From assembly GCA_039589115.1 (NCBI GenBank), contig JBDHHZ010000017.1, positions 1 through 46,772 of the forward strand: a DNA stretch of 46,772 nt. Reading direction: 5' to 3'. A program made the position numbers and the translations under genes. A model generated the notes under the pieces. That model had not been told where the DNA came from. It ran no database searches and was given only the letters and a program-made list of their open reading frames with translations. The DNA comes from Gemmatimonadota bacterium (GTDB lineage: Bacteria; Gemmatimonadota; Gemmatimonadetes; Palauibacterales; KS3-K002). This document shows positions 1 to 41,109 of this stretch, one piece after another; position 1 is the first letter of the stretch; each line of letters opens with the position of its first letter.

Positions 1-805
1 CCCAACTGACCTCACGCCGAGCAAGATCCGGTGCCTCTCGGCCGCCGACACCCCGAACGCTGTGGCACCCTGCGCAACCTTTTTCCTCAAATGTGACGCG
101 ACCCTCGTTGGCATCTCCCGGTAGAACGTACAAGGGCCCGGCCAGTGACGGCGGCGAGATCGACTCGAGGTAGGCGATCAGATCTGTGAGCTCGGAACCG
201 GAGAAGGTCGGGCGTTCTATCCCCTTGTCCTCCATCATGGCCTGCATCCCAGGCCCGTGATTCCACATCGCTGCTGCAACCAGGATCGGTGAGCCATACT
301 GCCCGAGGTGGTCGAGGCTGGGCCCGGCCACGCCACCGTGCACACCCACCTGGTGACACATTACGCACTTCTTTTCATCGAACAGTTGCTCTCCAGCGTC
401 TGGATCGCCGGGCGGGTCGAAGTAGTCCAGCGTAAACAGAAACGCTACCAGGTCTCCCGCTTCGCGCTCGCTCAGCTGCGGGCGCTCGATACCGAGTTCG
501 TGCATCCGCTGTTCCATACGAGGGAGGTGGTTCCACATCGTGGCGGCCAAATCGTAGAGCGATCGCCGCTCCGCGACGTGCCCCAGGTCCGGCCCGAGCG
601 TTCCGCCCAACCCGTTCACCGAGTGACACTTGACGCAACCTTTAGAACCGAAGACTTGGGAGCCAGCCAAGGGGTTCTGCGTCAGCCCCCAGCGTTCCTG
701 AGCGTAAGCCGGCTGTAAGGCCCACAGAAGAAGTACAGCCACGGTCAGGCTCGAGGCTACGTCGGCTTTTCCGCTTAGACTGATTGATGGGTGCTTGCCG
801 ATCAT
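1..805 (-). CDS. Multi-domain class I cytochrome c (at least 3 hemes), truncated by the window edge; paralog of 848..2056
   Basis: Absent from the ORF track because there is no stop in the window. Manual translation from ATG 805 (GGAGG RBS upstream) gives MIGKHPSISL...LLLWALQPAYAQ (signal peptide), then CVKCH, CVMCH and CAGCH; the first two are followed by GPxL...MWNH. Confidence 0.9.
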   Translation of the reverse strand, partial: MIGKHPSISLSGKADVASSLTVAVLLLWALQPAYAQERWGLTQNPLAGSQVFGSKGCVKCHSVNGLGGTLGPDLGHVAERRSLYDLAATMWNHLPRMEQRMHELGIERPQLSEREAGDLVAFLFTLDYFDPPGDPDAGEQLFDEKKCVMCHQVGVHGGVAGPSLDHLGQYGSPILVAAAMWNHGPGMQAMMEDKGIERPTFSGSELTDLIAYLESISPPSLAGPLYVLPGDANEGRVTFEEKGCAGCHSVRGVGGREAPDLARREVSW

Positions 806-847
806 AGTGGTCCTCCAGGTCCCGCGAGTTCTTTGGCGCAGACAGCG

Positions 848-2056
848 TCACCTACTGGCGGCCAGGTCTCTCAGGTATACCGCGAGGTCTCTCATCTCGG
901 CCTCTTCGAAACGAGGCCAATCCACCTGCTCGAGTTGAATGACCGTGTACATTGCAGGGGCGTGATTCCACATAGCTGTAGCAAGCCTTATCGGCGCCAG
1001 TATGACGTCCGACTGAGAAAGATCGGGCCCGATCGAATCGCCACCGTCGACTGCGTGACAGCTGGCGCAGCCTTTCTGCGCGAACACTGCTTCGCCCGCG
1101 CGTGCGTCACCCCCGGTATCGTAGAATCGCAAGTAGTACAGGAAGGCGATAACGTCCGCCATCTCTTTGCCCTCAAACCGGGGAAAGGTGATCCCGCGAG
1201 CCCGCATCGCCGCCGCCATCTGGGATGAGTGATTCCAAAGCGTTCCGGCTATCTCCGAGACACGGAGCAGTTGAGTCGCACTGCGGAGATCCGGTCCGAA
1301 CCGTGTTCCACCGCCGCTGGGCCCGTGGCAGCTCGAACACCCCTTCGCCAGGAATAAACCGCGACCGGTATTGGGGTCAGGGGGTTGGAGGAACATGACA
1401 TCACGGCCCTGAAGGCTCGAAACCTCCCGGATGTACGCTTGGATATCTGCCATCTCTCGCCCCATGAACGAGGGAACCCCACGGAGCGTGGCCTGCTGCG
1501 CCTGCATGGCTGAGCCGTGGTTCCACATGCCTGTGGCCAGCATTAGCGGAGCTATGTAACGGGCGTAGCCGTCGAGGGGCAGGGCGGTTTGGCCACCTTC
1601 ATCACCAATCGCATGACACTCAATGCAGCGCATCTCGCGGAACCACCGCTCGCCAAGAACAGGATCCCCCGGCTCGTCGAACAGTTTCACGTAATAGATG
1701 TAGCTGATGATGTCAGCGAGCTCTTCCTCGGTGAAGGTCGGCCACTGGAATCCCCTGACCTGCACGGTTTGGATCATTTGAGGTGTGTGGTTCCAAAACA
1801 TACCGGCGAGCTGCTGCAAGCTGCGGCCGGCGCCGACCAGGGCGAAATCTGGACCGAGCGTCCCGCCATTCCCCCAGATGGCGTGACAACGATCGCAACC
1901 CCGCGCTACGAAAATCCGGCGCCCGGCGATGGGATCTCCGGGGAATGACTGGTCAGATTGCGCGTGCGCTGCCCCCACAGCCAGCAGGAATGTGCAGCAG
2001 AGCGCCCCGAAAGAGGCGAACAACAGAGTCCGAATAGCACGTGGGTTAAGCATCAC
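848..2056 (-). CDS. Periplasmic tetraheme cytochrome c (four tandem class I cytochrome c domains)
   Basis: Signal peptide ending AHA-Q; CDRCH, CIECH, CSSCH and CASCH, each followed by a (M/F/L)WNH..xM motif. Start is GTG 2056 or ATG 2053. Confidence 0.92.
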   Translation of the reverse strand: MMLNPRAIRTLLFASFGALCCTFLLAVGAAHAQSDQSFPGDPIAGRRIFVARGCDRCHAIWGNGGTLGPDFALVGAGRSLQQLAGMFWNHTPQMIQTVQVRGFQWPTFTEEELADIISYIYYVKLFDEPGDPVLGERWFREMRCIECHAIGDEGGQTALPLDGYARYIAPLMLATGMWNHGSAMQAQQATLRGVPSFMGREMADIQAYIREVSSLQGRDVMFLQPPDPNTGRGLFLAKGCSSCHGPSGGGTRFGPDLRSATQLLRVSEIAGTLWNHSSQMAAAMRARGITFPRFEGKEMADVIAFLYYLRFYDTGGDARAGEAVFAQKGCASCHAVDGGDSIGPDLSQSDVILAPIRLATAMWNHAPAMYTVIQLEQVDWPRFEEAEMRDLAVYLRDLAASR

Positions 2057-2074
2057 ATATCTCCGGCCGGCAAG

Positions 2075-3427
2075 CTACGCGCTCTCCGGCAAGTACTCAG
2101 CCACCCGGTCGGCGACCTCCCGCACAGAGTGTTCTCGTCCTTCCTTTATCTCCCAGATCGAAACAATCGGGATGAACTTGGTGGCGAGCATGTACAGCAA
2201 GATGAAGCCCGAGAACGTAGCTGCCATGATCGACAGCTCGACCCATGAGGGTAGGTATTGACCGATCGACTCGATTTCCCAGCGCGGATTCACCGACGTC
2301 GGAACCACTATGTTGAACCGCTCGAGCCACATGCCAATCATCACCGCGATTCCGGCGATAAGTGTGCCCCGAGGCGTCCTCATCGAGCGCCGCGACATGA
2401 GGGAGAGCGGTATGACGAAGCAGCCCAGAACCATGGCCCAGAAGGGGATGGCGAACGGTCCCGCCAGCTTCGCCCAAAAGGCGCGCATCTCTCCGGGCTC
2501 CCCACCGTAGAACGCGGTCAGGTACTCTGCGAATGTGAAGTAGAACCACAGCAAGCTGAACAAGAGGAGCAGGCGGCCCAGGTAATCGAAGTGAATGTCC
2601 TTGAAGTACTGTTGTAGGCCGAAAGCTCGCCGCAGCACGACCATGGCGACAAGGATGGCAGCGATACCGGAGTAGATCGCGCCCATGACGAAGTAGGGCC
2701 CAAAGATGGTGCTGTGCCACATGGGTCGGAGCGTCATTGCGAAAATCCACCCGATCACGGTGTGGACGGAAACCGCTATGGGTATCACGATGATCGAGAG
2801 AACTCCGATAACCCGCTCGAGACGCGCACGCTGCGCCGGCGTGTCGAGGTAGCCGGCAGCAAGGAACCGGTAGAAGCGGGGCGCCTTGATACCCGAGTCG
2901 CGGATGATTGCCAGGTCGGGCAGCAGGGGGACGTAGAGGTAGAGCGTGCACGAGATGAAATAGAGGCCGATGCTCGCGACATCCCAGAGCAACGGCGAGC
3001 TCAGTTGCGCGTGTAGCATGACGTTCAGCACTCGGTCGGGGCGGCCCAGGTCGGTGATCGGTTGGATCGCGCCGAAGCCGATGACAAGAACCGTGATCAA
3101 TTCCGCAGAGCGAGTGATAGAACGCCGCCACTCCGCCTTGCTCACCCGAAGGATGGCGGAGATCAATGTGCCGGCATGGCTGATCCCGATAAAGAAGACG
3201 AAGCAGATGATGTAGATGCCCCAGTAGCTGGGACGATTCAGTCCGGTACGACCGAGGCCGAAACTGACTTGCAGGTAGTACGCAAACATCCCCCAAAGCG
3301 TGATAGCCGCGAGCGAGGCCGCGACGACGTAGAAGCTGCGCGAGGTCTCGACCAACGGCCGCAGAAGGACCTGTTCGTCGGTCGACATGCGGGCCAGCTT
3401 CTCTCTCACGGCTTGTCGCATTCTCAT
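2075..3427 (-). CDS. NrfD/PsrC-family quinone-interacting membrane subunit (QrcD/ActC-like)
   Basis: WGIYIICFVFFIGISHAGTLISA, DLGRPDR, SSPLLWD and WLERF motifs, about 10 TM segments. Start moved to ATG 3427, which overlaps the upstream stop (ATGA). Confidence 0.92.
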   Translation of the reverse strand: MRMRQAVREKLARMSTDEQVLLRPLVETSRSFYVVAASLAAITLWGMFAYYLQVSFGLGRTGLNRPSYWGIYIICFVFFIGISHAGTLISAILRVSKAEWRRSITRSAELITVLVIGFGAIQPITDLGRPDRVLNVMLHAQLSSPLLWDVASIGLYFISCTLYLYVPLLPDLAIIRDSGIKAPRFYRFLAAGYLDTPAQRARLERVIGVLSIIVIPIAVSVHTVIGWIFAMTLRPMWHSTIFGPYFVMGAIYSGIAAILVAMVVLRRAFGLQQYFKDIHFDYLGRLLLLFSLLWFYFTFAEYLTAFYGGEPGEMRAFWAKLAGPFAIPFWAMVLGCFVIPLSLMSRRSMRTPRGTLIAGIAVMIGMWLERFNIVVPTSVNPRWEIESIGQYLPSWVELSIMAATFSGFILLYMLATKFIPIVSIWEIKEGREHSVREVADRVAEYLPESA

Positions 3428-4122
3428 TCTCTCGGCCGCAGATAATAGACCTTCGGTTGGGTTCCCAAGTCCTCCATCAGACGCATTACCCGAGGATCCT
3501 CTTTCAGGCTGGACACCCTGTGACTCGGGTTGTCCAGGTCGCCGAAGACGATGGCGCCGGTGGGACAGATGTCGGCACAAGCCGGCTGATAGTCCTCCTC
3601 ACGCAGTTCGCGTCCCTCGGCGCGCGCATCTTCCCGAGCCTTCTGCAGGCGGTGGTGACAGAACGTGCACTTCTCGATGACACCGTTTGGCCGAACTGAC
3701 ACGTCTGGATTAAGGTGCTGGCGCTCGGACTCGGACCACTCCGGTCCGTACCAGTTGAAGTACTTCACCATGTATGGACAGGCGTTGGCACAGTAGCGGC
3801 AGCCGATGCAGCGCGCGTAGATCTGGCCGACGATACCTTCGTCATCGATATAGGTCGCCTCTACAGGACAGACCCTTATGCACGGTGGATTGTCGCAGTG
3901 CATGCAAGGGCGAGGGTAGAAGTGCATCTTCGTATCTGGAAACTCCCCTTCCACATGCGCCATGACCCTCAGCCAACTGGTGGCGCGCCCCATATCCGCT
4001 TGGTCGGCAGAGACTGCAGCTATGTTGTTCTCGCTCTTACACGCCACCTCACATGCCGCACAGCCCGTGCAGCGGTCCAAGTCGATCACCATTCCCCAGC
4101 GTGTCATATTCTGATCCGTCAC
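3424..4122 (-). CDS. 4Fe-4S polyferredoxin subunit (NrfC/PsrB/QrcC-like)
   Basis: WGMVIDLDRCTGCAACEVAC, CMHCDNPPCIRVCP, CIGCRYCANACP, KCTFCHHR...ACADICP and GTQPKVYY; 16 cluster-type Cys. Confidence 0.95.
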   Translation of the reverse strand: MTDQNMTRWGMVIDLDRCTGCAACEVACKSENNIAAVSADQADMGRATSWLRVMAHVEGEFPDTKMHFYPRPCMHCDNPPCIRVCPVEATYIDDEGIVGQIYARCIGCRYCANACPYMVKYFNWYGPEWSESERQHLNPDVSVRPNGVIEKCTFCHHRLQKAREDARAEGRELREEDYQPACADICPTGAIVFGDLDNPSHRVSSLKEDPRVMRLMEDLGTQPKVYYLRPRE

Positions 4123-6479
4123 GTCCGTTCGAGGCGTACAAAGGTGGAAGACCAGCTCGGAAGTCCCGTGAGTGGGTCGTTCGAGCCATCGAGCAACTGG
4201 AGCGGATTAGCTGCCTGCCCGTCAGGATGGCGAAGTCCGTAAGGCGCGCAGACGGTTTCGGGTGCCGTCCCTGGAGATACTTTGAGGTGGGCTCGATACC
4301 TGCCGCGGGGCGAGACTACCCACACTTTCGTGTCGTCGCTGAGTCCCAGCGCATGCGCCGTCTCCGGAGCCACCTCGACCCAGGGGTGCCAAAGGACGTC
4401 GGGAAATATTCCCGGTTGCTCGGCGAGCCATCGCTCGAGGTTCAGAGTGCCCGAGGCCAAGGTGGACACGCGATAGGGTATGAGTCGCAACCCGAACTCG
4501 GATGAACCCTCCGCGGTTTGGTTTGCGATGTCGAGGTAGGGCCTGGGCGCCGATCCTTCCGAGTCAAGAACGCTCAGCAGCGCCGCCGGCATCAGCTCGA
4601 TTCGGTTGCTACCTGTTCGGGCCAGGCGGTGGGGGTCGGTATGATCGTAGAACAGATCGGTCCAGCCACCGCGCTCGACCAATTCTTCCCAGAATGCCTC
4701 GAAATCGGTGTGTTCCGGCAGCCACCAGCCGCGCTCCTCCATCTGGCGGTGGTGCGTGCGCTCGAAGTGACCACCCAACGTCATGCCGCGCCGGACGGCA
4801 AAGAGGCCGCGAGCCCTTTCCCTAAGCAGCCCCTCGAAGCTCTCGTATGGCAGGCTCTCGGCCACGTTGCCGCCCAAGCTTTGTGCGAGGGCAAGCACGA
4901 CATCCCCCGAATGCATCGCACCCTCATGCGGCGCGACCAGTGGCCGGGCGAGACCCCAAACCGGATACGGGTAGGTCATTGGATTCGGCGCGTCCTGCCA
5001 GCGTTCGTACGGCAGCAAGTCGGGCAGAACCACGTCCGCGTAGCGGGCGGTCTCGTCGAGGAACGGTGAGAAGCTGACGACGAAGGGGATCTTCTCGAGC
5101 GCTTCGCGCCATACCGAGGGGTGTGTGGACGAAGCGATGGGATTGGCGTAATAGAGTAGCAGCGCCTCCACCGGGGCTTCGGCCCCAGCTACGGCCTCGG
5201 CGAAGCGGAGCGCCTCGCCGCCGCTGCCGAACGGTGATTGGGCGGCGCCGATCGGCCCGCGACCTACGCCTTCGCGGGCGGTCTCGTCCAACACGGGCGA
5301 ACCCAGCGGTCCAATTGGGGCATCTTCTCCGAACAGCACTCCACCTGGGCGATTGACGCTCCCCGTCAGCACGTTGATGCTATGGACGGCCAGGCCGGCC
5401 AGTAGCCCATTCGGGGCGAACGTGACGTCCGTTCCGCAGACGGCGACAGCCGGTCGGTTTGCGGCGATCGCTCTGGCCAGCGCCGTGATCCGCGCGACCG
5501 GTACGCCCGTGATCGCGGATACTTCCTCGGTTCGGTAGTTGCGCATCACGAGCGATCGATAGCCTTCCCTGGGCTGGCCCTGCGCATCGACGAAGTCCTC
5601 GAAGCCGGATACATGCCGCGCTACGAAGTCGGCGTCGAACAGCTCGTCCCTTATCAGCACATAGGCAATTCCGAGAGCAAGCACGGCATGCGTTCCCGGC
5701 CGCACACCGACCCACTCGTGGGCGCGCGAGGCCGTGCGAGAGAAACGCGTGTCCACCTGGACGAAGCGAGGACCCCGCTCTCTCTCATCGTCCGGGCTCG
5801 CGAAGGCCACGAATGCCTGAAGCGGAGACCACCACGACTCGAACAAGGGAGCACCGAACGAGAGCACCAGGCGGGCCCGGTCGAGATCGTAGCTGGGTCG
5901 ACGCGGGATGCCGTGCATGAGCGCCATGACGGCGTCCGTTCCGTCCTCGTACTCATCGGCCACATAGTTGGGTGATCCGAAAGAGCGCAGGAACTGACGC
6001 CAAAGATCTTGCATCGTGCCAGCGCTGTAGCCCGCCAGAAGTGCCAGCGCCTCCGGTCGGCCGGCCGCCCTGAGCCCCTGCAGCTGCTCGCCGATGCGGG
6101 CAATAGCTTGCTCGCGCGTGACGGTTTCCCACTGGCCGCCGCCGCGAGGACCGTTGCGCACCAGCGGCGCGGCGAGCCGTTCTGGGTGGTAGAGCATCTG
6201 GACCCCGGCGACGCCGCGCGGACAGAGGCCCCCGCGGCTAAGCGGGTGGAGGGGATTGCCGTTAATCCTGACCAAGCGTCCGTCCACCAGGCGGCCTCGG
6301 ATCCCGCAGCGCGAGGGGCAAATCAGGCATGCGGAGTTGCGTTGCTCTTCGATTCCGGGCGCCCACCCCACGTCCACGGACTCTTCCGAGGTCCAGAGCA
6401 CGTCCTGCGTCCCTTTCAGGGCCACTGTCGCCGCGGCGGCACCCATCGTCCACAGGAAATCGCGCCGACTTGGGCTCAT
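4119..6479 (-). CDS. Tat-exported molybdopterin-oxidoreductase-fold subunit (QrcB/ActB1-like) with an N-terminal FS0 motif
   Basis: ATG 6479 with GAGGAGG RBS; SRRDFL twin-arginine signal; CLICPSRC...CPRG; GNPLHP, ADVVLP and a C-terminal molydop-binding-like region. Confidence 0.9.
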   Translation of the reverse strand: MSPSRRDFLWTMGAAAATVALKGTQDVLWTSEESVDVGWAPGIEEQRNSACLICPSRCGIRGRLVDGRLVRINGNPLHPLSRGGLCPRGVAGVQMLYHPERLAAPLVRNGPRGGGQWETVTREQAIARIGEQLQGLRAAGRPEALALLAGYSAGTMQDLWRQFLRSFGSPNYVADEYEDGTDAVMALMHGIPRRPSYDLDRARLVLSFGAPLFESWWSPLQAFVAFASPDDERERGPRFVQVDTRFSRTASRAHEWVGVRPGTHAVLALGIAYVLIRDELFDADFVARHVSGFEDFVDAQGQPREGYRSLVMRNYRTEEVSAITGVPVARITALARAIAANRPAVAVCGTDVTFAPNGLLAGLAVHSINVLTGSVNRPGGVLFGEDAPIGPLGSPVLDETAREGVGRGPIGAAQSPFGSGGEALRFAEAVAGAEAPVEALLLYYANPIASSTHPSVWREALEKIPFVVSFSPFLDETARYADVVLPDLLPYERWQDAPNPMTYPYPVWGLARPLVAPHEGAMHSGDVVLALAQSLGGNVAESLPYESFEGLLRERARGLFAVRRGMTLGGHFERTHHRQMEERGWWLPEHTDFEAFWEELVERGGWTDLFYDHTDPHRLARTGSNRIELMPAALLSVLDSEGSAPRPYLDIANQTAEGSSEFGLRLIPYRVSTLASGTLNLERWLAEQPGIFPDVLWHPWVEVAPETAHALGLSDDTKVWVVSPRGRYRAHLKVSPGTAPETVCAPYGLRHPDGQAANPLQLLDGSNDPLTGLPSWSSTFVRLERT

Positions 6480-6495
6480 CCGGTTCCTCCTCGCA

Positions 6496-7035
6496 CTAGC
6501 GGTGGCATGCGTTGCAGTCGAGGGTTTGTCCCTGCTCGCGGTGGCAGTCCAGACAGAAATCCATGTCGATCCTGACCAGCGGGCGAGCAGGTGGACGTAC
6601 AGTCTGAGCGATCGCGCCGTGGCAGTTATCGCACTCCAGCTCGGCAATCCCGACATGGCGGCGGTGCGTGTAGAACACATGCGACTCGAGGCGGAACAGC
6701 TTGTTGAACGTTAGTGCGTCGCCTTCGGCGAGCAGTGTCGTGACCCGAGCCGCCTCGGCCGACGTGCCTTGCGTAGCTTGGTGGCACATAGAGCAAGTTT
6801 GGGCATCCGGCAGCCCGGCATGCGCGCGTTTCGTCACATGCACATGACAGAACTGGCAATTGAGTCCGAGCTCCTCGGTATGCTTGCGATGGTTGAACGC
6901 GACCGGTTGCGGAACGGACGGTTTGCCCGTGACAACCACTGTGATGATGATCCCAGCAGTCAGGATCAGGCCGAGCCCCACGTAGCCCCACCACACGCGT
7001 GCGAATCCGCCGCGATCAGCGGCAGTACCTTGCAT
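6496..7035 (-). CDS. Membrane-anchored pentaheme cytochrome c (QrcA/ActA-like)
   Basis: One N-terminal TM; PQPVAFNHRKH; CQFCH, CSMCH, CDNCH, CLDCH and CNACH. Confidence 0.93.
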   Translation of the reverse strand: MQGTAADRGGFARVWWGYVGLGLILTAGIIITVVVTGKPSVPQPVAFNHRKHTEELGLNCQFCHVHVTKRAHAGLPDAQTCSMCHQATQGTSAEAARVTTLLAEGDALTFNKLFRLESHVFYTHRRHVGIAELECDNCHGAIAQTVRPPARPLVRIDMDFCLDCHREQGQTLDCNACHR

Positions 7036-7066
7036 TCTAGGTATCTCGAGTTTGGTGTTCAGGCTC

Positions 7067-7105
7067 GGAGTCTTTCCCCTGAGCGATGCTCAGGGGAAAG
7101 ACTCC
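7067..7105. other. Perfect 18-bp stem-loop inside the operon (RNA stability, processing or partial termination)
   Basis: GGAGTCTTTCCCCTGAGC-GAT-GCTCAGGGGAAAGACTCC; no U tract on the minus strand. Confidence 0.75.
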
Positions 7106-7136
7106 AGGCGTTGCCGAGGCGAATTGCTGTCCCGCT

Positions 7137-8677
7137 CTATGGAACCGGGTCCGGATACGTGGTCGCGTTCGTCAGCGCTAGGTACAAATCCAAGATCTCG
7201 GTGAGATCCGTCACCAGGCTGCCCATGGCCGTGCCTGGCTGCCCGAACTTGACCTTGTGTTGCACCTCGTACGGCTTCGCACGGAGGAAGCTGCCGACGC
7301 TGAAGCTGCCATCGACCAGGAAGGCCGTACCGTCGGCGCCGTGGCAGGCGGCGCAGCGGGCGGCATAGGTCGCATCGCCCGCGCTGGCGTTACCGCCCGC
7401 GCCGATGTTCGAGTAGGTGATCGAGCCGGTCGGGTACGTCCCGGTGGTGGAGATGTCATAAAGCAAATCGGTGTCATTCGCTTCTTCTTTCAGGAACTTC
7501 ACCAGATCCCAGACCTGCTCCTCCGTCATGATGTCACTCAGGTCGGGCATCTGGTCGCCGACCGTGGAATTCGTCACCGGATCGTACGTGGAAAGATCCG
7601 CGCTCACCGCACGACGAGCGGTGGACCTCCACAGGGCATCGAACAGTGCCTGTTCCGACATCGCCGCCGTCGCCGTCTTCAGGTTGAGCGAGGCTACGTT
7701 CGGCCGCGTTGCGCTCGGCGCACGGCCGATGTACGAGGCCGCATTGCCAAGCCGGTCCCACGCGTGGCACTGCTTGCAGCGGAAGAAGTTCGAGAAGCCA
7801 TTGAACGTCGCCAGGTTCGGATCGCTCTGATTCCAGCCCGTCTCCGCAGTCCAGAACTTGTCGTACATCGTGCCGCCGTTAATACCGTCGGCAAGCTCGA
7901 ATGCCGGATCCGGGTAGTTGGCCTCGTCCGTCAGCGCTGCGTACAAATCCAGTATGTCGTCGATGTCCGTTACCAGGCCGCTGCCCATGGCCGTGCCCGG
8001 CTGCCCGAACTTGACCTTGTGCTGCACCTCGTACGGCTTCGCACGGAGGAAGCTGCCCACCGTGAATTCGCCGTCCACGACGATGGCTGTACCGTCGGCG
8101 CCGTGGCAGGTCGCGCAGTTGGCCGCATAGATCGCATCACCGTTGGTCGCGTCACCGCCCGCGCCGATGTTCGAGTAGGTGATCGACCCGGTCGGGTACG
8201 TCCCGGTGGTGGAGATGTCATAAAGCAAATCGGTGTCATTCGCTTCTTCGTGGAAAGATCCGCGCTCACCGAACGACGGCCGGTGGAGCCCGACAGGGCG
8301 TCGAACAGCTCCTGCGGCGTCATGTCCGCCGTGACCGCCTTCAGGTTGAGCGAGGCCACGTTCGGCCGCGATGTGCTCGGCGCACGGCCGATGTACGACG
8401 CCGCTCTGCCCAGCCGGTCCCACGCGTGGCACTGCTTGCAGCGGAAGAAGTTCGAGAAGCTATTGAACGTCGCCAGGTTCGGATCGCTCTGGCTCCAGCC
8501 CGTTTCCGAGGTCCAGAACTTGTCAAACATCGTGCCGCCGTTAACACCGTCGGCGTTGGTGAATTCAGGCGGGTCGGTCACGGCGGGTCCGCCATCGTCA
8601 TCGTCGCAACCGGCCGGGCCGACGAGAATGAGGGCGACAAGCGCGAGGGCTAGGGTCCTGAAGCGAGATGAATCCAC
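7137..8677 (-). pseudogene. Tetraheme cytochrome c lipoprotein made of two tandem diheme units; frameshifted near 8250 (real lesion or assembly error)
   Basis: The 5' part (ORF 7970..8725; start GTG 8677 or ATG 8725) has a lipobox-like GPAG-C and CKQCH. The 3' part (ORF 7137..8432) has CATCH, CKQCH and CAACH. Unit 1 lacks the 100 bp that correspond to 7488-7587 of unit 2. Confidence 0.85.
7150..8555 (-). repeat. Intragenic tandem duplication (about 7150-7895 and 7905-8555)
   Basis: Long near-identical DNA stretches, e.g. 7400-7487 vs 8162-8249; repeated peptides DKFWT.ETGW.QSDPNLATFN.FSNFFRCKQCH and FLRAKPYEVQHKVKFGQPGTAMGS. Confidence 0.92.
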
Positions 8678-8828
8678 GGCGTCCACCTCCTGTGGGTCAC
8701 GTGAGCAGCGGAATCGGCTGAACATGGGTCCTCCTTCCAGTGGGCGACTGGAATGCTGCGAGATCAGAGGTCGGGCAGGCGATGGTTGGGGCCTGGCGGT
8801 TGGGGCCTGCCATTCCGTCTTTCCTAGG

Positions 8829-8845
8829 GGCAGATCTCGTACCAG
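8829..8845 (-). promoter_or_regulatory. Sigma54 (-24/-12) promoter of the respiratory operon
   Basis: Minus strand CTGGTACGAGATCTGC fits GG-N10-GC (consensus TGGCACG-N4-TTGC); a divergent NtrC-family activator gene is nearby. Confidence 0.72.
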
Positions 8846-9110: not shown

Positions 9111-9485
9111 TTGGGCAAGAAGATCGTTTTGGTTGACGACGATCGCTTGGTCTTGCAGAGTGTGTTGGCTGCGCTCGAGGCGAGCGGCTACCAGGTATGG
9201 GCGACCGATTCGACGGAGGAGGCGGTGGAACTGACCAGGGAGGTGGAGCCCGACGTGGTGGTGACCGACTACCGAATGCCGGGGATGGATGGCGTATCGC
9301 TGCTTGAGCGGGTGAAGGAATTGGCGGCGGTTCCGCTGATGCTAGTGTACAGTGCGACGCCGCCGGCACGAGGTGGACCGCCTGAGGGAATGCGGGAGGT
9401 GTACTGGGTCGCGAAATCTTCTGGTCACGGAGCGCTTCTGGGCAAGCTAAGGGACTTGCTGGAGAGCGGAGTTGACCCGAGATAG
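9111..9485 (+). CDS. Stand-alone response regulator receiver protein
   Basis: KIVLVDDD, DVVVTDYRMPGMDG, conserved S/T and K positions; no output domain. Confidence 0.9.
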   Translation: MGKKIVLVDDDRLVLQSVLAALEASGYQVWATDSTEEAVELTREVEPDVVVTDYRMPGMDGVSLLERVKELAAVPLMLVYSATPPARGGPPEGMREVYWVAKSSGHGALLGKLRDLLESGVDPR

Positions 9486-11322
9486 CTTCTGGCGCTCGCT
9501 CTGGCAGAGGATGCCGCTCCGGGGCGGGCTGGGTCGCCGGATTCTTCTGTGGTTCCTCGTGCTCTCGCTAGTACCTCTGCTTGTTTCGAACACCGTGGGG
9601 TACCTTTATACGCGGGAGATCATAGACTGGCAAATACGACGCTACTTGGGCGCACTGGCGGAGATCCAGGCGCAGCAGGTAGCTACAGAGGTCGAGCGTC
9701 ACCAGCTCTTCTTAGAAGGGATTACGGTCAGCAGTCTGCCTCTCTTTCAGACCATGTCTGCTGCCGCCCTTCAAGTGGGGCAGCGACAAGATCGCTCTCT
9801 CACAGCACTCCAGGCGCATCTAGCTCACGAGCTCACGGAACTCCGGTCAGTAGGCGAGTTCTTCGTGATCGACACGACAGGAACTGTGATTGCAGCGACG
9901 GACAGCGACCGGCTTGGACAGGATTGGTCGCACAGATGGGTATTCCGTCGCGGCCGCGCCGAACGATATTTCGCGGCCGATTGGGACATGCAGAACGGCA
10001 ATGTTGTGCCCCTTTACCGGCTGGCTGTGCCGATACGCGACGGACAGCGAAGAGTGATAGGCGTGCTCGGGGGTACCGTAAGCTTCGATAGGTTGCAGAC
10101 GTTTCTGAGCGTTCCTGAGCATCTGGCTATTGACGTCCACGCCTTCATCGTAGACCGCTTCGGCCGCCCTGTGTTCGCATCGCACCCCCATATTCCCATT
10201 GACTACCGGAAGAGACTAGCGTCGCCTCTGGTCGATCAGGAGCCGGGCTCGGTGGCCCGTTACGTTAACTACGAGGGCATCGAGGTAGTAGGCACTTCCG
10301 TAGCCGTTCCCGACGTTCAGTGGCTGTACATTTCCGAGGTATCGGTAGCCAGCGCTCTTGGCCAATTGCGCGGGCTTGCGCTTCTGGCGGCCACGCTCGA
10401 GAGCGCGTTCGCGCTCTTACTGGTCGCAATAGTCTGGATCGTAGCACGCTCGATCGTTGCTCCCCTCCGGCGCCTGGTCGTTGCGGCGGAACGTATTCGC
10501 AAAGGCGATCTGGGTACTACTGTCGAGATCGAACGAGATGACGAACTGGGTGACCTCGGCCGTACATTCGATCAGATGTCCAGCGAGCTCGAGTCCTCGG
10601 CGCGCAAGATCCAGGAGCTTCACGAGGGGGATATGCGCCGGGCGGCGCAGCTCGCGTCGGTGGGCGAGCTAGCTTCCGGGATCGCGCACGAGATAAAGAA
10701 CCCGCTGATTGGGGTGGCGAGCGGGGTCGATCTGCTCTCGAGACGAGTCGGGACAGATTCGAAGTCCGCTGTCCTTCTGGACCAGATCCACGCGCAGATT
10801 CGCCGTATCGAGTCAGCCTTAAAGGACTTGCTTAGCTACGCCAGTCCCAAGGAACCGCTGTATACTTGGACCGACCCTGAACTGCTGGTGGAGAGGCTCA
10901 TCGCACTCGTGCGTCCGCAGGCCGATGCTGCGGGAGTGGAGATCACGGGACGCCACGATGAAGCGCTACCGACGATACGGGTCGATCCGGAGCTCCTCAC
11001 CCAAGCTCTGGTCAACCTGGCTCTGAACGCGATCCAGGCGATGGAGCCTGGGGGGATACTTCGGGTTTCCCTCGAGACCGTGGATGACAACGTGTGCTTC
11101 TCGATCTCTGATAGCGGAGTGGGGATCGCGCTTGAGGAGATAGACCGGATCTGTCGGCCGTTCTACACCACCAAGCACCAGGGCACCGGACTGGGCTTGG
11201 CTATAACATGTGAAATCGTCGAACGCCACGGCGGCCACATCAAAATCGAGAGCAAGCTTGGTGAAGGCTCTACGTTCACGCTTGTCATACCGGGTAAGCC
11301 GCAGGAGGCGCTAGTGCGATGA
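9472..11322 (+). CDS. Sensor histidine kinase (dCache-like periplasmic domain, HAMP, HisKA, HATPase)
   Basis: Two TMs; DELGDLGRTF HAMP; GIAHEIKNPL H-box; NAIQAM, DSGVGI, PFYTTK and GTGLGL. Start may be ATG 9511. Confidence 0.95.
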   Translation: MTRDSFWRSLWQRMPLRGGLGRRILLWFLVLSLVPLLVSNTVGYLYTREIIDWQIRRYLGALAEIQAQQVATEVERHQLFLEGITVSSLPLFQTMSAAALQVGQRQDRSLTALQAHLAHELTELRSVGEFFVIDTTGTVIAATDSDRLGQDWSHRWVFRRGRAERYFAADWDMQNGNVVPLYRLAVPIRDGQRRVIGVLGGTVSFDRLQTFLSVPEHLAIDVHAFIVDRFGRPVFASHPHIPIDYRKRLASPLVDQEPGSVARYVNYEGIEVVGTSVAVPDVQWLYISEVSVASALGQLRGLALLAATLESAFALLLVAIVWIVARSIVAPLRRLVVAAERIRKGDLGTTVEIERDDELGDLGRTFDQMSSELESSARKIQELHEGDMRRAAQLASVGELASGIAHEIKNPLIGVASGVDLLSRRVGTDSKSAVLLDQIHAQIRRIESALKDLLSYASPKEPLYTWTDPELLVERLIALVRPQADAAGVEITGRHDEALPTIRVDPELLTQALVNLALNAIQAMEPGGILRVSLETVDDNVCFSISDSGVGIALEEIDRICRPFYTTKHQGTGLGLAITCEIVERHGGHIKIESKLGEGSTFTLVIPGKPQEALVR

Positions 11323-12698
11323 GCGCTCGACCCGCTATCGCTGTCGTCGACGACGAGGAGCTTTTCCGGAGCTGGCTGAGCGAGCACCTCGGTGCAGCCG
11401 GGTACGCAGTTAAGGAGGCGGCGACAGGCGGCGAAGCACTGCGCCTGGCGGCAGAGGAGAGCCCGGCATTGATGCTGCTCGATCTGCGGCTCCCTGACGC
11501 TGACGGCCTCGAACTCGTCACCCGGCTTCACGAGATCGACCGTGACTTGGTCGTCGTGATCGTGACTGCATATGGAGAGGTGCAGACAGCAGTCCGGGCC
11601 GTGAAGGCGGGGGCTTACCATTTCCTCGAGAAGCCTGTGAATCTTGATGACTTGCTTATCACCATGGAGAAGGGCTTGGAAGCTCAGCGTCTCCGCCGGG
11701 AAGTTGCGGTCCTGCGCGAGCAGCATCGGTGGCAGTTTGCGAGCGTGGAGTTCGTGGGCCGCTCTCTCGCCGTGCGTCATCTTATCGAGGTCTTGGAGAA
11801 GGTGGCTCGCACTGACTCGGCAACAGTGCTGCTTCAGGGGGAGAGCGGCACCGGCAAGGACCTCGTAGCTCGCGCCATTCATGGCCGCAGTAGCCGAAAG
11901 GACCAGCCCTTCCTGGAGATAAATTGCACAGCGCTGCCTGAGACTCTTGTCGAAGCAGAACTGTTCGGCCACGAGCGTGGCGCCTTTACGGACGCGCGTG
12001 AGCGGAAGAAGGGCCTCGCTGAACTTGCCGACGGGGGCACACTCTTGCTGGACGAGATCGGGGACATGCCGCTGGGAGCTCAGGCCAAACTGCTGCGGTT
12101 CCTGGAAGATTCGAGGATCAGGCGGCTGGGAGGTACCACCGACATCCCCGTGAACGTGCGGATCATCGCCGCCACGAATCAGAACCTGGCCACGGCCATA
12201 GAAGCGGGGAAATTCCGAAGCGACTTATACTACCGGCTGAAAGTCGTCGATCTATACATCCCTCCGTTGCGCGAACGTCCTGAGGACTGTGCTCCACTGG
12301 CACTTTACTTCGTTGAGCAGTTGTCCCGTGATCTCAAGCGCGAACCACCCACGATAACTCTAGACGCGATCCGTGTCCTCGAGGCCTATCCATGGCCGGG
12401 CAACGTCCGCGAGCTTCGAAACGTACTTGAGCGAGCGCTTATTCTGGAAGACACGCAAGAGATTCGACTGGAGCACCTGCCGGTCGAGATCCGCAGCGCT
12501 GTGCAGCCGCCCGGCGGAGCGGATCACGTAGTCCAACTCCCGGTCGAGGGGTTTCGCATGGATGATGTCGAGCGCAGCCTTATCGAGCAGGCCCTTACGC
12601 GGACGAGGGGCAATGTAGCACATGCAGCCCGCCTCCTCGGCCTGAGCCGGGATACTCTCCGCTATCGAGTGAAGAAGTACAACTTCACCGAATCCTAG
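11319..12698 (+). CDS. Sigma54-dependent NtrC/AtoC-family response regulator
   Basis: REC domain; GESGTGKD Walker A; GAFTDA loop; LLLDEIG; FRSDLYYRL; WPGNVREL; Fis-type HTH. Confidence 0.96.
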   Translation: MSARPAIAVVDDEELFRSWLSEHLGAAGYAVKEAATGGEALRLAAEESPALMLLDLRLPDADGLELVTRLHEIDRDLVVVIVTAYGEVQTAVRAVKAGAYHFLEKPVNLDDLLITMEKGLEAQRLRREVAVLREQHRWQFASVEFVGRSLAVRHLIEVLEKVARTDSATVLLQGESGTGKDLVARAIHGRSSRKDQPFLEINCTALPETLVEAELFGHERGAFTDARERKKGLAELADGGTLLLDEIGDMPLGAQAKLLRFLEDSRIRRLGGTTDIPVNVRIIAATNQNLATAIEAGKFRSDLYYRLKVVDLYIPPLRERPEDCAPLALYFVEQLSRDLKREPPTITLDAIRVLEAYPWPGNVRELRNVLERALILEDTQEIRLEHLPVEIRSAVQPPGGADHVVQLPVEGFRMDDVERSLIEQALTRTRGNVAHAARLLGLSRDTLRYRVKKYNFTES

Positions 12699-12868: not shown

Positions 12869-15337
12869 CTACTCCACCCGCAAGGCGGCGCTGGGATCGA
12901 TCCGCGCCGCCCGCGAGGCGGGTACGATGCCCGCCGCCGCCGCCGCCAGCAGTAGCGTTACCGTCACGACGGTCAGCACGACTGGGTCACGCGGAGATAT
13001 CTGGTAAAGCAGCGGCGCCAGCGCGCCGCCGGCGGCGATGGCGATGACGAGTCCGAGCACGACGCCGATAGCGGCGAGCGCGACCGACTCCCTCAGTATT
13101 TGGGCGACGATCCTGCCGCGCGTGGCGCCCAGCGCGCTGCGCACGCCGATCTCGTGGGTCCGTTGCGCCACGTTGAAGGCGAGCACGCTGTACAGCCCGA
13201 GCGCCGCCACGATCAGAGCCAGGAGGCCGAACAGGCCGAACACTGTTGCACCCAGCCGGTAGGAGCGGAGCTGCGGGTCGATCCGCTCCTGTAGGGGCCG
13301 CACGACGGCGTATCTGATGTCCGGGTCGCCGCTCAACAACTCTCGCTGGACTACGGACACGAGCGCCTCCGCGTCGCCGCGTGCCCGGAGGAGGATGGCG
13401 GAGGGGGTCTCCTCGGCATATTGTGCGGCGGGAACGTAGTAAACCCACTTCCGCGTCTCAGTCAGCCGCATCCGGTGTGAATCGGCGACGACCCCGACGA
13501 CGCGGGTGCAGGGTGCGTCGACCGACGCGATGAAGAAACACTGGTCGAGCGGGTCGCTCCCCCAGAGTCCTCGGGCCATCGACTCGTTCACGATGGCGAC
13601 GCGCGGGGCGCCGGCCACGTCCGACTCGTTGAAGTCGCGGCCGCGGCGCATCGCGATGCCGAGCGTCGCGAAGTAGTCCGACTTCACTGTCTCGAAGTGC
13701 GGTCCCGGTGGCGGGGCCGGGACGGAATCGCCGCCGGGCACGAAGACGTCTTCGATCGACCCACCCCAGAAAAGCAGGCCGCCGCTGGTGCTGGCGTGCT
13801 CCACCGACGGGAGCGCCTGCAGCCGCTCCAGCGACCGCTGGTAGATATTCCCCACCTCCTCGGGGGTTCGCTCACGCGGCTCCAACTCCAGCATCGCATA
13901 GACGACCGGGTTAGGCTCGAATCCGAGATCGAGGCCCTCCAGGCGTTGCAGGCTGCGAACGAAAAGACCGGCCCCCACCAGGAGAACCAGCGATAGTGCT
14001 CCCTGAACGACCAGCAAGGCGACCCGGGTCCTGGACCGCTGGACCGTGCCCGCCCGGGCGCTGTCTTTCAGATCATTGCTCAGATCGAAGCGCCCGGCCT
14101 GGAGTGCGGGGACGATCCCCGACACGATTCCCGTGACCAGCGCCAACAGGGCGGTGGCGGCGAGTACACGGACGCTGACCGGCGAATCGCTCCACATCAC
14201 ATCGGGCAGCAAGATGTGACGGATGAAGTCGGCGCCCCACGACGCCACTAGCAGTGCCACCGCCCCGCCCAGCGCCGCCAGCACGACGCTCTCGGTGAGC
14301 AGCAAGCCGGTGAGCCGGCTGCGTGAGATTCCCAAGGCGAGTCGTACGGCGATCTCCTTCCTGCGGCGCAGGCTTCTAGCCAGCAGCAGGTTCGCCACGT
14401 TAGCGCAGGCGATGAGCAGAACGACGAGTGAAACGCCGGCCAGCAGGACCGAGACCTTCGACTCCCTGGACGCCATCGGCCCACGGGCCTCCACCAGGGG
14501 GGCGGCGACCACCCGTACATTCTCGTCGTACGTGCCCTGATCGATTCCCTCGCGGCGACCGTTCCAATGGAGGCGCGTGGCCTCGTTCTCGGCGGCCTCG
14601 ATGCTCACGCCGGGAGCCAGCCGCGCGATGACCTTGATCCAGTAGTAGTTGCGGGTACGCTTCCAGCGATCGGTCTCTCGCTCGATCGTGTAGGCGTGCA
14701 GCGGCGCCCAGAGATCGATCCGCTCCATGTCTACGCCAGCGAACCCGCCGGGCGCGACGCCGATGACCGTGTAGGCGCCTCTGCCTATGTCCAATGTCCG
14801 CCCCAGCACCGACGGGTCGCCGCCGAACCGCGCCTGCCACAGGCCGTGGCTCAGGACCACGACGCCCGCGGCGCCTGCCTGGTCGTCCGACTCGTCGAAG
14901 AACCGACCTAGCGCCGGCTCGAGCCCCAGCACCCTGAAAAACGAACCCGAGGCCAAGCTCCCCTTCAGGCGGACCGCGTCCGTGCCACTGCCCAACGTCA
15001 TCTCGTTGGGCCAGTAGGCGCCCACCGATGCGAAGCTGCCAGCCTCCTGCCAGTCGGTGTAGTCCAGGTAGGCGTGGGCCCGCTGGTGGACCAGAGGACC
15101 GTTAACGCGGTTCCGCAGATGAGCGTAGAGCCGCCGCACCTGATCCGCGTCCCTCACCTGCGCCGGCGCGCTCAAGAGCAGGCGATCCAGGATGCCGAAC
15201 ATGGTGGTGTTGACGCCGATCCCCAGAGCCAGCGTCACCACCACCGCAGCCGTGAACCCGGGCGACCTGAGCAGGCCCCGCATGGCGTAACCCAGGTTGT
15301 CGCGCGCTATAGATATGATCTCTATGAGACGGTCCAT
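12869..15337 (-). CDS. ADOP/MacB-FtsX-type duplicated ABC permease
   Basis: LALGIGVNTTMF, LLIACANVANLLLAR, EIGVRSALGA and a PASRAARIDP..ALR.E ending. Confidence 0.95.
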   Translation of the reverse strand: MDRLIEIISIARDNLGYAMRGLLRSPGFTAAVVVTLALGIGVNTTMFGILDRLLLSAPAQVRDADQVRRLYAHLRNRVNGPLVHQRAHAYLDYTDWQEAGSFASVGAYWPNEMTLGSGTDAVRLKGSLASGSFFRVLGLEPALGRFFDESDDQAGAAGVVVLSHGLWQARFGGDPSVLGRTLDIGRGAYTVIGVAPGGFAGVDMERIDLWAPLHAYTIERETDRWKRTRNYYWIKVIARLAPGVSIEAAENEATRLHWNGRREGIDQGTYDENVRVVAAPLVEARGPMASRESKVSVLLAGVSLVVLLIACANVANLLLARSLRRRKEIAVRLALGISRSRLTGLLLTESVVLAALGGAVALLVASWGADFIRHILLPDVMWSDSPVSVRVLAATALLALVTGIVSGIVPALQAGRFDLSNDLKDSARAGTVQRSRTRVALLVVQGALSLVLLVGAGLFVRSLQRLEGLDLGFEPNPVVYAMLELEPRERTPEEVGNIYQRSLERLQALPSVEHASTSGGLLFWGGSIEDVFVPGGDSVPAPPPGPHFETVKSDYFATLGIAMRRGRDFNESDVAGAPRVAIVNESMARGLWGSDPLDQCFFIASVDAPCTRVVGVVADSHRMRLTETRKWVYYVPAAQYAEETPSAILLRARGDAEALVSVVQRELLSGDPDIRYAVVRPLQERIDPQLRSYRLGATVFGLFGLLALIVAALGLYSVLAFNVAQRTHEIGVRSALGATRGRIVAQILRESVALAAIGVVLGLVIAIAAGGALAPLLYQISPRDPVVLTVVTVTLLLAAAAAGIVPASRAARIDPSAALRVE

Positions 15338-25635: not shown

Positions 25636-26415
25636 ATGTTCTCTCTCTCGAAGTGGTACTGCGACTGCGTGAGCGATGAAGGAGCCGCCGTCATCGGGTA
25701 CTGGGCCCGCATGCGGTGGGGACCGCTCAGCTTGCCCTACGCGGCGACCCTCCACAAGCCGGTCGGCGAGCACCCGCGCGAGCGCTACATGATGCGTCGG
25801 TGCGCCGCTCCAACCATAGAAGACGACGAGCTGCGCTGGGACTGCGAGCGCCTCGGTCTTCGTGGCGTGTGGACCGCCGGTATGCCTGCGATTGAGCGCG
25901 TGCTGCTCGAGACGGCCGAGGGCTCGATCACCTGGCACTGCAACACTCCATGCGGGCGCGCGCGGATCGACCTCGCCGGGGCCGGCCAGGTCTCGGGTCT
26001 TGGATACGCCGAGCGGCTCAGTGTGTCGGTGAGGCCGTGGCGGCTGCCGTTCGAGGAGCTGCGCTGGGGTCGCTTTCTGTCGGCGGACGATGCTGTGACG
26101 TGGATCGAGTGGCGCGGCCGGGAATCGCGCCGCTGGGTGTTTCACAATGGTCGCGAGCTGGAGGGCGCGACCGTCGGCGCGGAACGCATCGAGTTGCCGG
26201 TCGATAGCGGCACCATCGAGTTGCGGGACGCCGTCGTGCTCCGTGAGGGGCGGTTAGTATCCACGGCGCTTCGTGCGATCCCCGCCGCAGGCCTGTGGTT
26301 GCCGGGCGGGATCAAGAACGCTTCCGAGACCAAGTGGCTGGCGCGCGGAACGCTCACGACGGGCACGCGCTGCAGCTCGGGTTGGGCGATACACGAGATC
26401 GTGCGGCTACGATGA
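25636..26415 (+). CDS. Trp-rich hypothetical protein (possible AttH/tocopherol-cyclase-like beta fold)
   Basis: GAGGT RBS; KWYCDCV, GLGYAERL, LPFEELRWGRF and HE.V motifs; ATGA overlap with the next gene. The fold is a guess. Confidence 0.7.
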   Translation: MFSLSKWYCDCVSDEGAAVIGYWARMRWGPLSLPYAATLHKPVGEHPRERYMMRRCAAPTIEDDELRWDCERLGLRGVWTAGMPAIERVLLETAEGSITWHCNTPCGRARIDLAGAGQVSGLGYAERLSVSVRPWRLPFEELRWGRFLSADDAVTWIEWRGRESRRWVFHNGRELEGATVGAERIELPVDSGTIELRDAVVLREGRLVSTALRAIPAAGLWLPGGIKNASETKWLARGTLTTGTRCSSGWAIHEIVRLR

Positions 26416-28349: not shown

Positions 28350-28425
28350 ATTGACCCTTCAGCAGTCGTCGAGCGGGGCTTAGCGTCCTGATACCTTGAC
28401 ATTCGACAACAAGCTCATCACTATT

Positions 28426-28438
28426 GTAGACAATCTAG
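28426..28438. promoter_or_regulatory. Putative PadR operator
   Basis: GTAGA-CAA-TCTAG palindrome between TTGACA (28396) and the padR RBS. Confidence 0.6.
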
Positions 28439-28464
28439 GCATCGAACACTTACGGAGGCGAATC

Positions 28465-28800
28465 GTGGCGCGTTCCAAGACCGATCTGCTGCAGGGCACG
28501 CTCGACATGCTGATCCTCAAGACGCTGGCGCTGGGGAAGCTGCATGGCTGGGGCATCTCGAAGCGGATCCAACAAATGTCGCGTGGTGCGCTGGAAGTGA
28601 ACCAGGGCTCACTCTACCCGGCGCTATACCGGCTGGAGGACCGCGGGTTCATCGAAGCGGAGTGGGGGATTTCGCCGGAGGGACGCCGCGCGAAGTTCTA
28701 CATGCTGACCGACGCGGGGAAGAGATCTCTTCGGGAAGAGAAGCGATCCTGGAAGCTCTTCTCGGAAGCGGTCGAGCTGATCTTGCAGACGAGTCAGTAG
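28465..28800 (+). CDS. PadR-family regulator (Acidobacteria type, linked to ADOP permeases)
   Basis: GTG 28465 with GGAGG RBS; DLLQGTLDMLILKTL, HGWGI, QGSLYPALYRLE and RRAKFY.LT. Confidence 0.94.
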   Translation: MARSKTDLLQGTLDMLILKTLALGKLHGWGISKRIQQMSRGALEVNQGSLYPALYRLEDRGFIEAEWGISPEGRRAKFYMLTDAGKRSLREEKRSWKLFSEAVELILQTSQ

Positions 28801-41072: not shown

Positions 41073-41109
41073 GATCTACCTCCGTTCCATCGTCAGGGTT
41101 GGCTAGCTC

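Follow-up and report, generated by a model that had tools for sequence, protein, structure and literature searches.

The window analysed here is the entire contig JBDHHZ010000017.1 (C17; 46,772 nucleotides, nt) of a Gemmatimonadota metagenome-assembled genome (3.71 Mb in 503 contigs, completeness 91.7%), and its first part, positions 1-8725, is occupied by seven co-oriented minus-strand genes encoding a MopB-fold protein, an Fe-S protein, an NrfD-type membrane subunit and multihaem cytochromes c (Table 1). The left edge of the window is the contig end, which cuts the last gene of the row, named cytF. From the gene of the pentahaem cytochrome on, the spacing is operon-like, with overlaps or gaps of at most 42 nt. 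The gene calls of an earlier note, which was made from the letters alone, are genuine, and reading of the open reading frames (ORFs) bears out both its gene set and its count of 4+5+4+at least 3 haem motifs, as the operon holds 4+5+4+3 = 16 CxxCH. A 17th CxxCH, the CTFCH of the Fe-S protein, is part of a cluster motif and is no haem site.

Table 1. Genes and promoter-like element of the operon and of its diverging regulatory genes (window positions; ORF, open reading frame; Tat, twin-arginine translocation).
Feature	Position	Strand	Properties
cytF, cytE paralogue cut by contig end	2-805	-	268 aa, 3 CxxCH visible
cytE, four tandem class I cytochrome c domains	848-2056	-	402 aa, 4 CxxCH
ActC-like NrfD membrane subunit, quinone site	2075-3427	-	450 aa
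ActB2-like Fe-S protein	3424-4122	-	232 aa, 16 Cys, four four-Cys cluster motifs
ActB1-like MopB-fold protein	4119-6479	-	786 aa, starts MSPSRRDFL, twin-arginine SRRDFL, Tat signal
ActA-like pentahaem cytochrome c	6496-7035	-	179 aa, 5 CxxCH, N-terminal hydrophobic helix
Upstream repeat cytochrome c, probable lipoprotein	7137-8725	-	two dihaem units of ~250 aa, 4 CxxCH
Sigma-54-type -24/-12-like element TGGTACGAGATCTGCC	8829-8844	-	~105 nt 5' of first gene, GG-N10-GC spacing
Stand-alone receiver gene	9111-9485	+	Pfam Response_reg, 61 bits; diverges from operon
Sensor histidine kinase	9472-11322	+	dCache_1-HAMP-HisKA-HATPase
NtrC-type sigma-54-dependent response regulator	11319-12698	+	

In tblastn searches of the window with a relative's proteins (E <= 0.01), ActD, ActE and ActG of the alternative complex III (ACIII) gave zero matches and the ActF probe matched the NrfD gene alone. 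This and the gene set bear out the earlier description of the locus as a core of the Qrc/ACIII family with separately encoded B and C subunits, without ActD/E/F in the window and flanked by extra cytochromes. Comparisons with the PDB and with paralogues also place the complex in the Qrc/ACIII family, with all four core subunits closest to ACIII. The best PDB match of NrfD is ActC (6f0k_C, 5.4e-65), that of the Fe-S protein is the B2 domain of ActB (6f0k_B, 1.2e-58), and those of the pentahaem protein are ActA chains (6lod_A with 1.6e-20, then 8k9e_A and 6f0k_A). For the MopB-fold protein the best PDB sequence matches are ArrA and PsrA, which are also the closest folds (TM-scores 0.78 and 0.70, respectively) to its AlphaFold2 (AF2) model, a full four-domain fold with a predicted local distance difference test score (pLDDT) of 85.8; within the phylum, its closest paralogue is canonical ActB with 251 bits, compared with 178 bits for the Psr-like MopB of the source genome. 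Identity to a relative's canonical ACIII amounts to 32% for A, 29% for B1 over the full length, 45% for B2 and 38% for C. In the source genome, a canonical ActB-C-D-E-F operon lies apart from this one, on contig C298, and ActG is encoded on contig C446. We therefore consider it likely that the product of the operon is a paralogous, reduced ACIII, which most likely passes electrons between periplasmic cytochromes c and the quinone of the membrane.

The label QrcABCD, which the earlier note had given to the core, does not hold in this form. Of the NCBIfam models, those of Qrc do fit the pentahaem protein, MopB and the Fe-S protein best, but each protein stays under the equivalog cut-off (score/cut-off: QrcA 75/180, QrcB 292/440, QrcC 314/400), and the best model of NrfD is DsrP with 103 bits rather than QrcD (34/570). 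The proteins of two further loci, L074 and L081, are under all Qrc cut-offs as well, so that three family members are alike in this respect. Moreover, a relative's canonical ActB reaches 284 bits with QrcB and 210 bits with QrcC, and no ACIII-named NCBIfam model was found for the relative's canonical ActA, ActB and ActC. Since canonical ActB scores about the same as the window MopB on QrcB (284 vs. 292), the Qrc label says little. With the Qrc model NF041784, 21 relatives, three genomes with distant loci and 151 genomes from the phylum of genome G021 all stayed without a match above the cut-off. A phylogeny of NrfD, proposed earlier as a check on the family assignment, was calculated from 38 rows, with canonical ActC and ActF taken from one genus and QrcD not included, and it unites the window family, ActC and ActF in one group (Shimodaira-Hasegawa-like approximate likelihood ratio test, SH-aLRT, 99), outside of which fall DsrP and the Psr-like NrfDs of the source genome; the window family itself is set apart with a support of 94.

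The operon is not restricted to this genome. A search with the NrfD protein, keeping one genome per species, yielded 80 loci of several phyla with a five-gene core that includes one tetrahaem class I cytochrome, and these belong to Gemmatimonadota, Acidobacteriota (Vicinamibacterales, Polarisedimenticolia), Eiseniibacteriota, Zixiibacteriota, Nitrospirae, Ignavibacteria/Bacteroidetes, Methylomirabilia and a 'delta proteobacterium'. Counted among those loci with room on the contig, NrfD is accompanied by the MopB gene in 65/65, by the pentahaem gene in 61/62, by the Fe-S gene in 71/74 and by the four-haem cytochrome CytE in 67/69 cases, and some of the misses (L031, L053, L073) resemble artefacts of ORF calling. 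ActD and ActG are found in none of the 80 loci (tblastn), and one locus gave a weak ActE-like match. A second tetrahaem gene directly downstream (24/62 loci) and the upstream repeat cytochrome (8/54) are confined to Gemmatimonadota, except for a second tetrahaem gene in one Methylomirabilia locus (L089). The boundary of the family is not clean in the absence of gene context, as phmmer against representatives returned a continuum of 391 proteins at E <= 1e-30, whose identities range between 57% and 31%.

Relatives also show how the operon ends. In two closed chromosomes (L013, L014) and on a long contig (L023), complete CytF has 405-418 aa with four haems and is encoded by the last gene of the cluster, which does not support the suggestion of the earlier note that a terminal partner may lie beyond the left edge; CytE of the window and CytF of L013 are 36% identical. 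In L013, the one locus that was read downstream, cytF is followed by a gap of ~440 nt and a converging methyltransferase gene, with no oxidase, reductase or porin gene after it.

Two other arrangements of this gene family were observed. In the Ignavibacteria/Nitrospirae/Eiseniibacteriota branch, a conserved protein of ~86 aa with two hydrophobic helices is encoded between NrfD and the tetrahaem cytochrome (L081:11331-11591, and at the same position in L072, L082-L088, L090 and L091). Pfam yields no match for this protein, and the window does not encode it; judged by its topology, it might stand in for ActD. The source genome also has another, incomplete NrfD gene of this clade, which runs into the end of contig C422 and has a gene for cytochrome b behind it (L012:2184-2924 and 3-1499, minus strand); this may be a second, different module of the family.

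The motifs expected for the cofactors are highly conserved across the family. The residues W82, F89, H97, L166, D169, S245, H247 and R395 of the ActC pocket, named as quinone-site residues in PMC5928083 and PMC8076601, are invariant in 77/77 NrfD sequences. The same is true for the five CxxCH of the pentahaem subunit (64/64) and for all 16 Cys of the Fe-S subunit (75/75), of which Cys108 aligns with a Thr of Rhodothermus marinus ActB. Since the cluster FeS1 by the quinol site of ACIII is a [3Fe-4S] cluster with +140 mV (PMC5928083) and a table in PMC8076601 lists a [3Fe-4S] cluster for QrcC, the four-Cys motif predicted for the proximal cluster is a real difference from ACIII and Qrc.

The MopB-fold protein appears to have kept less. 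Its FS0 motif CX2CX3CX27C is complete, with Cys invariant in 67/67 sequences. However, a relative's fused canonical ActB (L100:3593-6604, same-genus genome) retains CX2CX3CX27C as well, next to a three-Cys spacing at the proximal cluster, and therefore FS0 retention does not set the split variant apart within this phylum. At the position of the Cys that ligates molybdenum in ArrA, the window MopB has Asp179, and neither Cys nor Ser nor Sec is present there. Asp is found at this position in 56 of the 67 sequences, with varied residues in distant branches (R, N, A, S, K, E and others in Ignavibacteria, Nitrospirae, Eiseniibacteriota and Methylomirabilia), so that, judged by alignment, a conserved molybdenum ligand is lacking in the MopB subunits of this operon family. 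MopB is also the least conserved subunit, with 24-25% identity in Ignavibacteria-type loci vs. 53-58% for the Fe-S protein and NrfD. Because the Asp is lost in distant branches and MopB is the least conserved subunit, it looks like a non-catalytic shell that holds FS0 alone, and the complex would then contain no molybdenum. For comparison, ActB1 of ACIII holds no cofactor according to PMC5928083.

CytE is encoded at the place where ActD and ActE follow ActC in ACIII operons. Each of its four domains has the arrangement CxxCH...WNHxxxM, and the Met of WNHxxxM is invariant or conserved to at least 90% in three of the domains, which is why the haems are probably His/Met-ligated, and the conserved Met suggests that they have a fairly high potential. 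The AF2 model of CytE (pLDDT 84.6) gave zero PDB matches at E <= 0.001 in a fold search, in which generic class I cytochromes (c555, TsdBA, Kustd1711, SoxX, QcrC) made up the weak hits. A complex prediction of CytE with the pentahaem subunit scored 0.00 and weighs neither way.

From these features the following route can be proposed. The ActC-like NrfD would oxidise quinol at a quinol/quinone site facing the periplasm, and the ActB2-like subunit with its four four-Cys motifs would sit atop NrfD. From the nearest Fe-S cluster, electrons would pass to the five haems of the ActA-like cytochrome, anchored by one helix, and from there to the four haems of CytE, which would take the position of the monohaem ActE and lengthen the haem wire. 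The Tat-exported MopB-fold subunit would be a shell that retains only FS0, and CytF as well as the repeat dihaem lipoprotein, where this is intact, would be further soluble periplasmic carriers in this lineage. The net reaction is thus most likely from quinol to cytochrome c and on to a cytochrome-c-dependent acceptor encoded elsewhere. Gene content, homology, cofactor motifs and synteny are observed, and from them we infer both the assembly into one complex and this direction of electron flow. The models for proton pumping in ACIII rely on ActD, a coupling subunit with two helices, and on ActF, a second NrfD-like subunit with a second proton path. As both are absent here, pumping in the manner of ACIII is unlikely, and any energy conservation would be as in Qrc or Psr, i.e. 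by charge separation at one NrfD.

Compared with the known ACIII structures (6F0K of R. marinus, 6BTM of Flavobacterium johnsoniae, 6LOD of Roseiflexus castenholzii, and 8K9E), the operon shares the five-haem ActA-like cytochrome with an N-terminal helix, the MopB-like and Fe-S modules in the gene order A-B-C, the ActC-like NrfD with the same quinol-pocket residues including the gate Arg395, and the periplasmic orientation, as indicated by the Tat signal and c-type haems. It differs in that B, which in ACIII is a fusion of the MopB-like B1 with a B2 that has one [3Fe-4S] and three [4Fe-4S] clusters, is split over two genes, in the FS0 Cys of MopB, although Gemmatimonadota canonical ActB has them too, and in the four-Cys instead of three-Cys [3Fe-4S] motif of the quinone-site cluster. 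Furthermore, ActD, ActF and ActG are missing, an unrelated four-domain cytochrome c follows NrfD instead of the monohaem lipoprotein ActE, and oxidase genes are not adjacent in L013, whose downstream region was read. With Qrc, the menaquinone reductase of Desulfobacterota, the operon has in common the four-subunit order of cytochrome, MopB-like protein, Fe-S protein and NrfD, and a single NrfD without ActD or ActF. In contrast, QrcB is cofactor-free (PMC13059093), whereas the window MopB retains FS0; QrcA has six haems and QrcC one [3Fe-4S] cluster (PMC8076601), compared with five haems and all four-Cys motifs here; and the partner of Qrc is a type I cytochrome c3 instead of class I cytochromes, besides the NCBIfam scores, which miss all four equivalog cut-offs. 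The complex iron-sulfur molybdoenzymes (CISM) of the Psr/Arr type (2VPZ, 6CZ7) also have the MopB fold, FS0, four four-Cys clusters and an NrfD-family anchor, but here the Cys/Sec/Ser ligand to the metal of Mo/W-bisPGD is missing, NrfD is of the ten-helix ActC type, and haem subunits are added.

A split ActB has been described before. Neutrophilic iron oxidisers have an actAB1B2CDEF cluster with separate actB1 and actB2 genes and the motif CX2CX3CX27C in ActB1, and such split forms were accepted as ACIII (Kato et al., 2015; PMC4643136). According to this description, they share the split and the FS0 motif with the operon of the window; they keep ActD, ActE and ActF, and a tetrahaem class I cytochrome is not reported in that publication. 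A genome paper on the MBNT15 bacterium SHF-111 mentions in passing an 'ACIII-like' cluster 4 of 'ActABCD plus four-haem ActE-like' (Begmatov et al., 2022; PMC9386147), which by its description alone can be likened to the window family. Hence, the designation 'undescribed' in the earlier note goes too far, as related clusters are in print in these two publications; the literature, supplements aside, yielded no biochemical study of the variant.

MtrA/MtrB-like genes are found within 10 kb of the module in five Acidobacteriota loci (L043, L075, L076, L077, L092) and in L089 of Methylomirabilia. In L043 (Vicinamibacterales) and L076 (Acidobacteria), genes for an MtrA-like protein, an MtrB/PioB-like protein (Pfam PF11854, 210 bits) and a monohaem cytochrome come directly after cytE. 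In L092 the pentahaem gene is preceded on its own strand by genes for MtrC-like and MtrA-like decahaem proteins, by an ORF of 644 aa and by a gene for a monohaem cytochrome, and L075, L077 and L089 have MtrA-like genes, in L089 together with an MtrB-like one. In L090, Rieske/cytochrome b and multihaem genes lie downstream. The Gemmatimonadota loci gave zero matches to the Mtr probes, and no MtrB/PioB-like gene was found in the source genome, which is 91.7% complete (tblastn with the proteins of L043, L089 and L092). A surface wire, which the earlier note had considered, is thus supported for the relatives in Acidobacteriota and Methylomirabilia and gains no support from the source genome, where tblastn found no MtrB-like gene. 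What the source genome does encode are the cytochrome-c-dependent acceptors haem-copper oxidase (one), NosZ and cytochrome c peroxidase. ORFs on its contig C11 (L009) read as a dsrAB-dsrMKJOP-sat cluster, with dsrA confirmed at 566 bits, above the cut-off.

Several points weigh against the assignment as a reduced ACIII that oxidises quinol. The invariant FS0 is without an obvious role in a mere shell. The four-Cys motif nearest to the quinone site fits a low-potential CISM, so that direction and potential may differ from ACIII. The position of D253 of ActC is Ile in the window NrfD, the sampling of the NrfD tree was narrow as described above, and it is gene order that places CytE in the complex. 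Finally, co-occurrence gives no usable signal. Among 201 Gemmatimonadota genomes, 18 hold the module (NrfD at least 55% identical to that of the window), and NosZ is found in 9 of these 18 vs. 72 of the 183 others, so that a link is not clear, and dsrA in only 4 of the 18, out of 7 in the whole sample.

The main rival is an operation in the direction of Qrc, in which cytochromes c reduced externally or in the periplasm, e.g. by Fe(II) via a porin-cytochrome conduit or by a sulfur compound, deliver electrons through the complex to quinone. We regard this as rather unlikely, yet the four-Cys motif of the proximal cluster and those relatives that are linked to porin genes speak for keeping it in view. 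The composition is as simple as that of Qrc, with one NrfD and without ActD and ActF, and the best NCBIfam models of three subunits are Qrc models; dsrA is present in the source genome, MtrA/MtrB(PioB)-like genes lie near the module in the six loci named above, and the split-ActB ACIII of iron oxidisers with CX2CX3CX27C was proposed to pass electrons to quinones (PMC4643136). On the other hand, the four subunits score under the Qrc cut-offs, most clearly for QrcD, canonical ActB equals the window MopB on the QrcB model, 14 of the 18 Gemmatimonadota holders are without dsrA, and the source genome has no MtrB-like gene that tblastn could find. In addition, the partners are class I cytochromes with a conserved Met, not bis-His c3, and quinone reduction from them would need an energy input.

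A wider, more speculative and still somewhat less probable reading takes the family as an inner-membrane quinone gateway to periplasmic or outer-membrane conduits in phyla without CymA-, ImcH- or CbcL-type proteins. The Vicinamibacterales operon, which continues into MtrA/MtrB-PioB genes, would then represent such a conduit, the Gemmatimonadota core would have been re-plumbed to soluble tetrahaem carriers, and FS0 together with an all-[4Fe-4S] wire would form a second electron branch through the MopB shell. If so, the complex would be a two-outlet device instead of a simple ACIII.

It is improbable that MopB is a working molybdenum or tungsten (Mo/W) enzyme with Asp179 as ligand as in NarG-type enzymes, acting on a periplasmic substrate as terminal reductase or oxidase while the cytochromes form a side branch. 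The Tat signal, the invariant FS0 Cys, the full wire of four four-Cys Fe-S motifs toward FS0, Asp at the ligand position in most sequences, and the four-domain fold with ArrA and PsrA as nearest structures and PDB sequence matches would all fit such an enzyme. Against it speak the replacement of Asp in the distant branches and the low conservation of MopB, as well as the FS0 Cys of the relatives' canonical ActB and the cofactor-free ActB1 of ACIII. The Pfam Molybdopterin score of 74 bits is near that of canonical ActB (58) and far under that of the genome's Psr-like enzyme (137). Moreover, in the alignment none of the residues that we take to be the active site of ArrA finds an aligned counterpart in MopB. 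That an ordinary ACIII operon was cut by a contig break, which took ActDEF away, or that the operon is an assembly artefact, is already contradicted and has next to no probability: the contig does end within cytF, but in closed chromosomes of relatives the same set ends after cytF, so that actDEF, which the earlier note had named as a possible sign of a canonical ACIII just downstream, does not follow, distinct canonical genes lie on C298 and C446, and ActD/ActG are missing in all 80 loci, with one weak ActE-like match.

To our knowledge, ACIII and Qrc are the sole characterised members of a large, cofactor-poor MopB/Fe-S/NrfD radiation. Since the variant has lost ActD and ActF and differs in the quinone-site Fe-S cluster, it is a natural test of which ACIII parts are needed for energy conservation. 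In Acidobacteriota, where it is linked to porin-cytochrome genes, it is a candidate for the step that couples extracellular electron transfer to quinone. The five-gene form is conserved over several phyla, mostly in uncultured bacteria of sediment, soil and groundwater, and the operon of the window itself adds a further well-conserved member to it, with extra cytochromes that are specific to its lineage; of these, one is broken in the assembly.

This broken gene is the first of the operon. The four CxxCH of the upstream repeat cytochrome are split over two frames (ORFs 7970-8725 and 7137-8432), and alignment of the DNA with unit 2 and with the orthologue of L013 shows that unit 1 is short by exactly 100 nt at the junction 8250/8249. 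The L013 orthologue is uninterrupted (564 aa, 4 haems, two units), that of L014 has 827 aa with 6 haems in three units, and in L018 the gene is absent. The loss of 100 nt is either an assembly error or a genuine deletion; none of the sequencing runs listed holds the source DNA, with no more than 0.11 of the sampled words shared. Therefore, the tetrahaem lipoprotein that the earlier note had seen upstream is right with regard to its four CxxCH, whereas the gene is not intact but frameshifted by the deletion. Pfam finds Cytochrom_C and Cytochrome_CBB3 only, and a PDB sequence search and an Atlas look-up led to generic cytochrome c clusters only. An identity as a TsdA-like protein was rejected, as the unit is without Cys outside the CxxCH motifs.

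Expression of the operon would probably start from a sigma-54 promoter under control of the diverging kinase and activator. The strict sigma-54 consensus TGGCAC-N4-6-TTGC is absent upstream of the operon, where a relaxed conserved element, TGGTACG-N4-CTGC, is present. The same -24/-12 element is located 105-117 nt upstream in L013, L018, L021, L023 and L024; in L015 and L017 its distance to the called ORF start is different, and L033, L034 and L037 have a variant of it. The source genome encodes rpoN. With a receiver, a dCache kinase and a sigma-54 activator diverging from the operon and this conserved -24/-12-like element, the inducibility suggested by the earlier note is plausible. In the three loci from other phyla that were scanned for this, the module-adjacent kinases (L070:2885-4822, L074:1900-3795, L080:1531-3408) carry two CxxCH and a periplasmic sensor domain of the Mcp40H-20 type; they may be haem-c sensor kinases, which hints at redox or gas sensing.

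Elsewhere in the window, an unusual 684-aa ORF (26295-28349, plus strand) fuses the Pfam domains PEMT, PAP2_3 and LGT (prolipoprotein diacylglyceryl transferase). Four large genes encode MacB_PCD/FtsX permeases (12869-15337, minus; 28851-31487, plus; 31691-34084, plus; 34260-36686, minus), and a gene for a PadR regulator (28396-28800, plus) stands before one of these. A BlaI-like repressor, a fusion of BlaR1 (M56) with HEAT repeats and a separate HEAT-repeat protein are encoded in a row at 40170-43297 on the minus strand.

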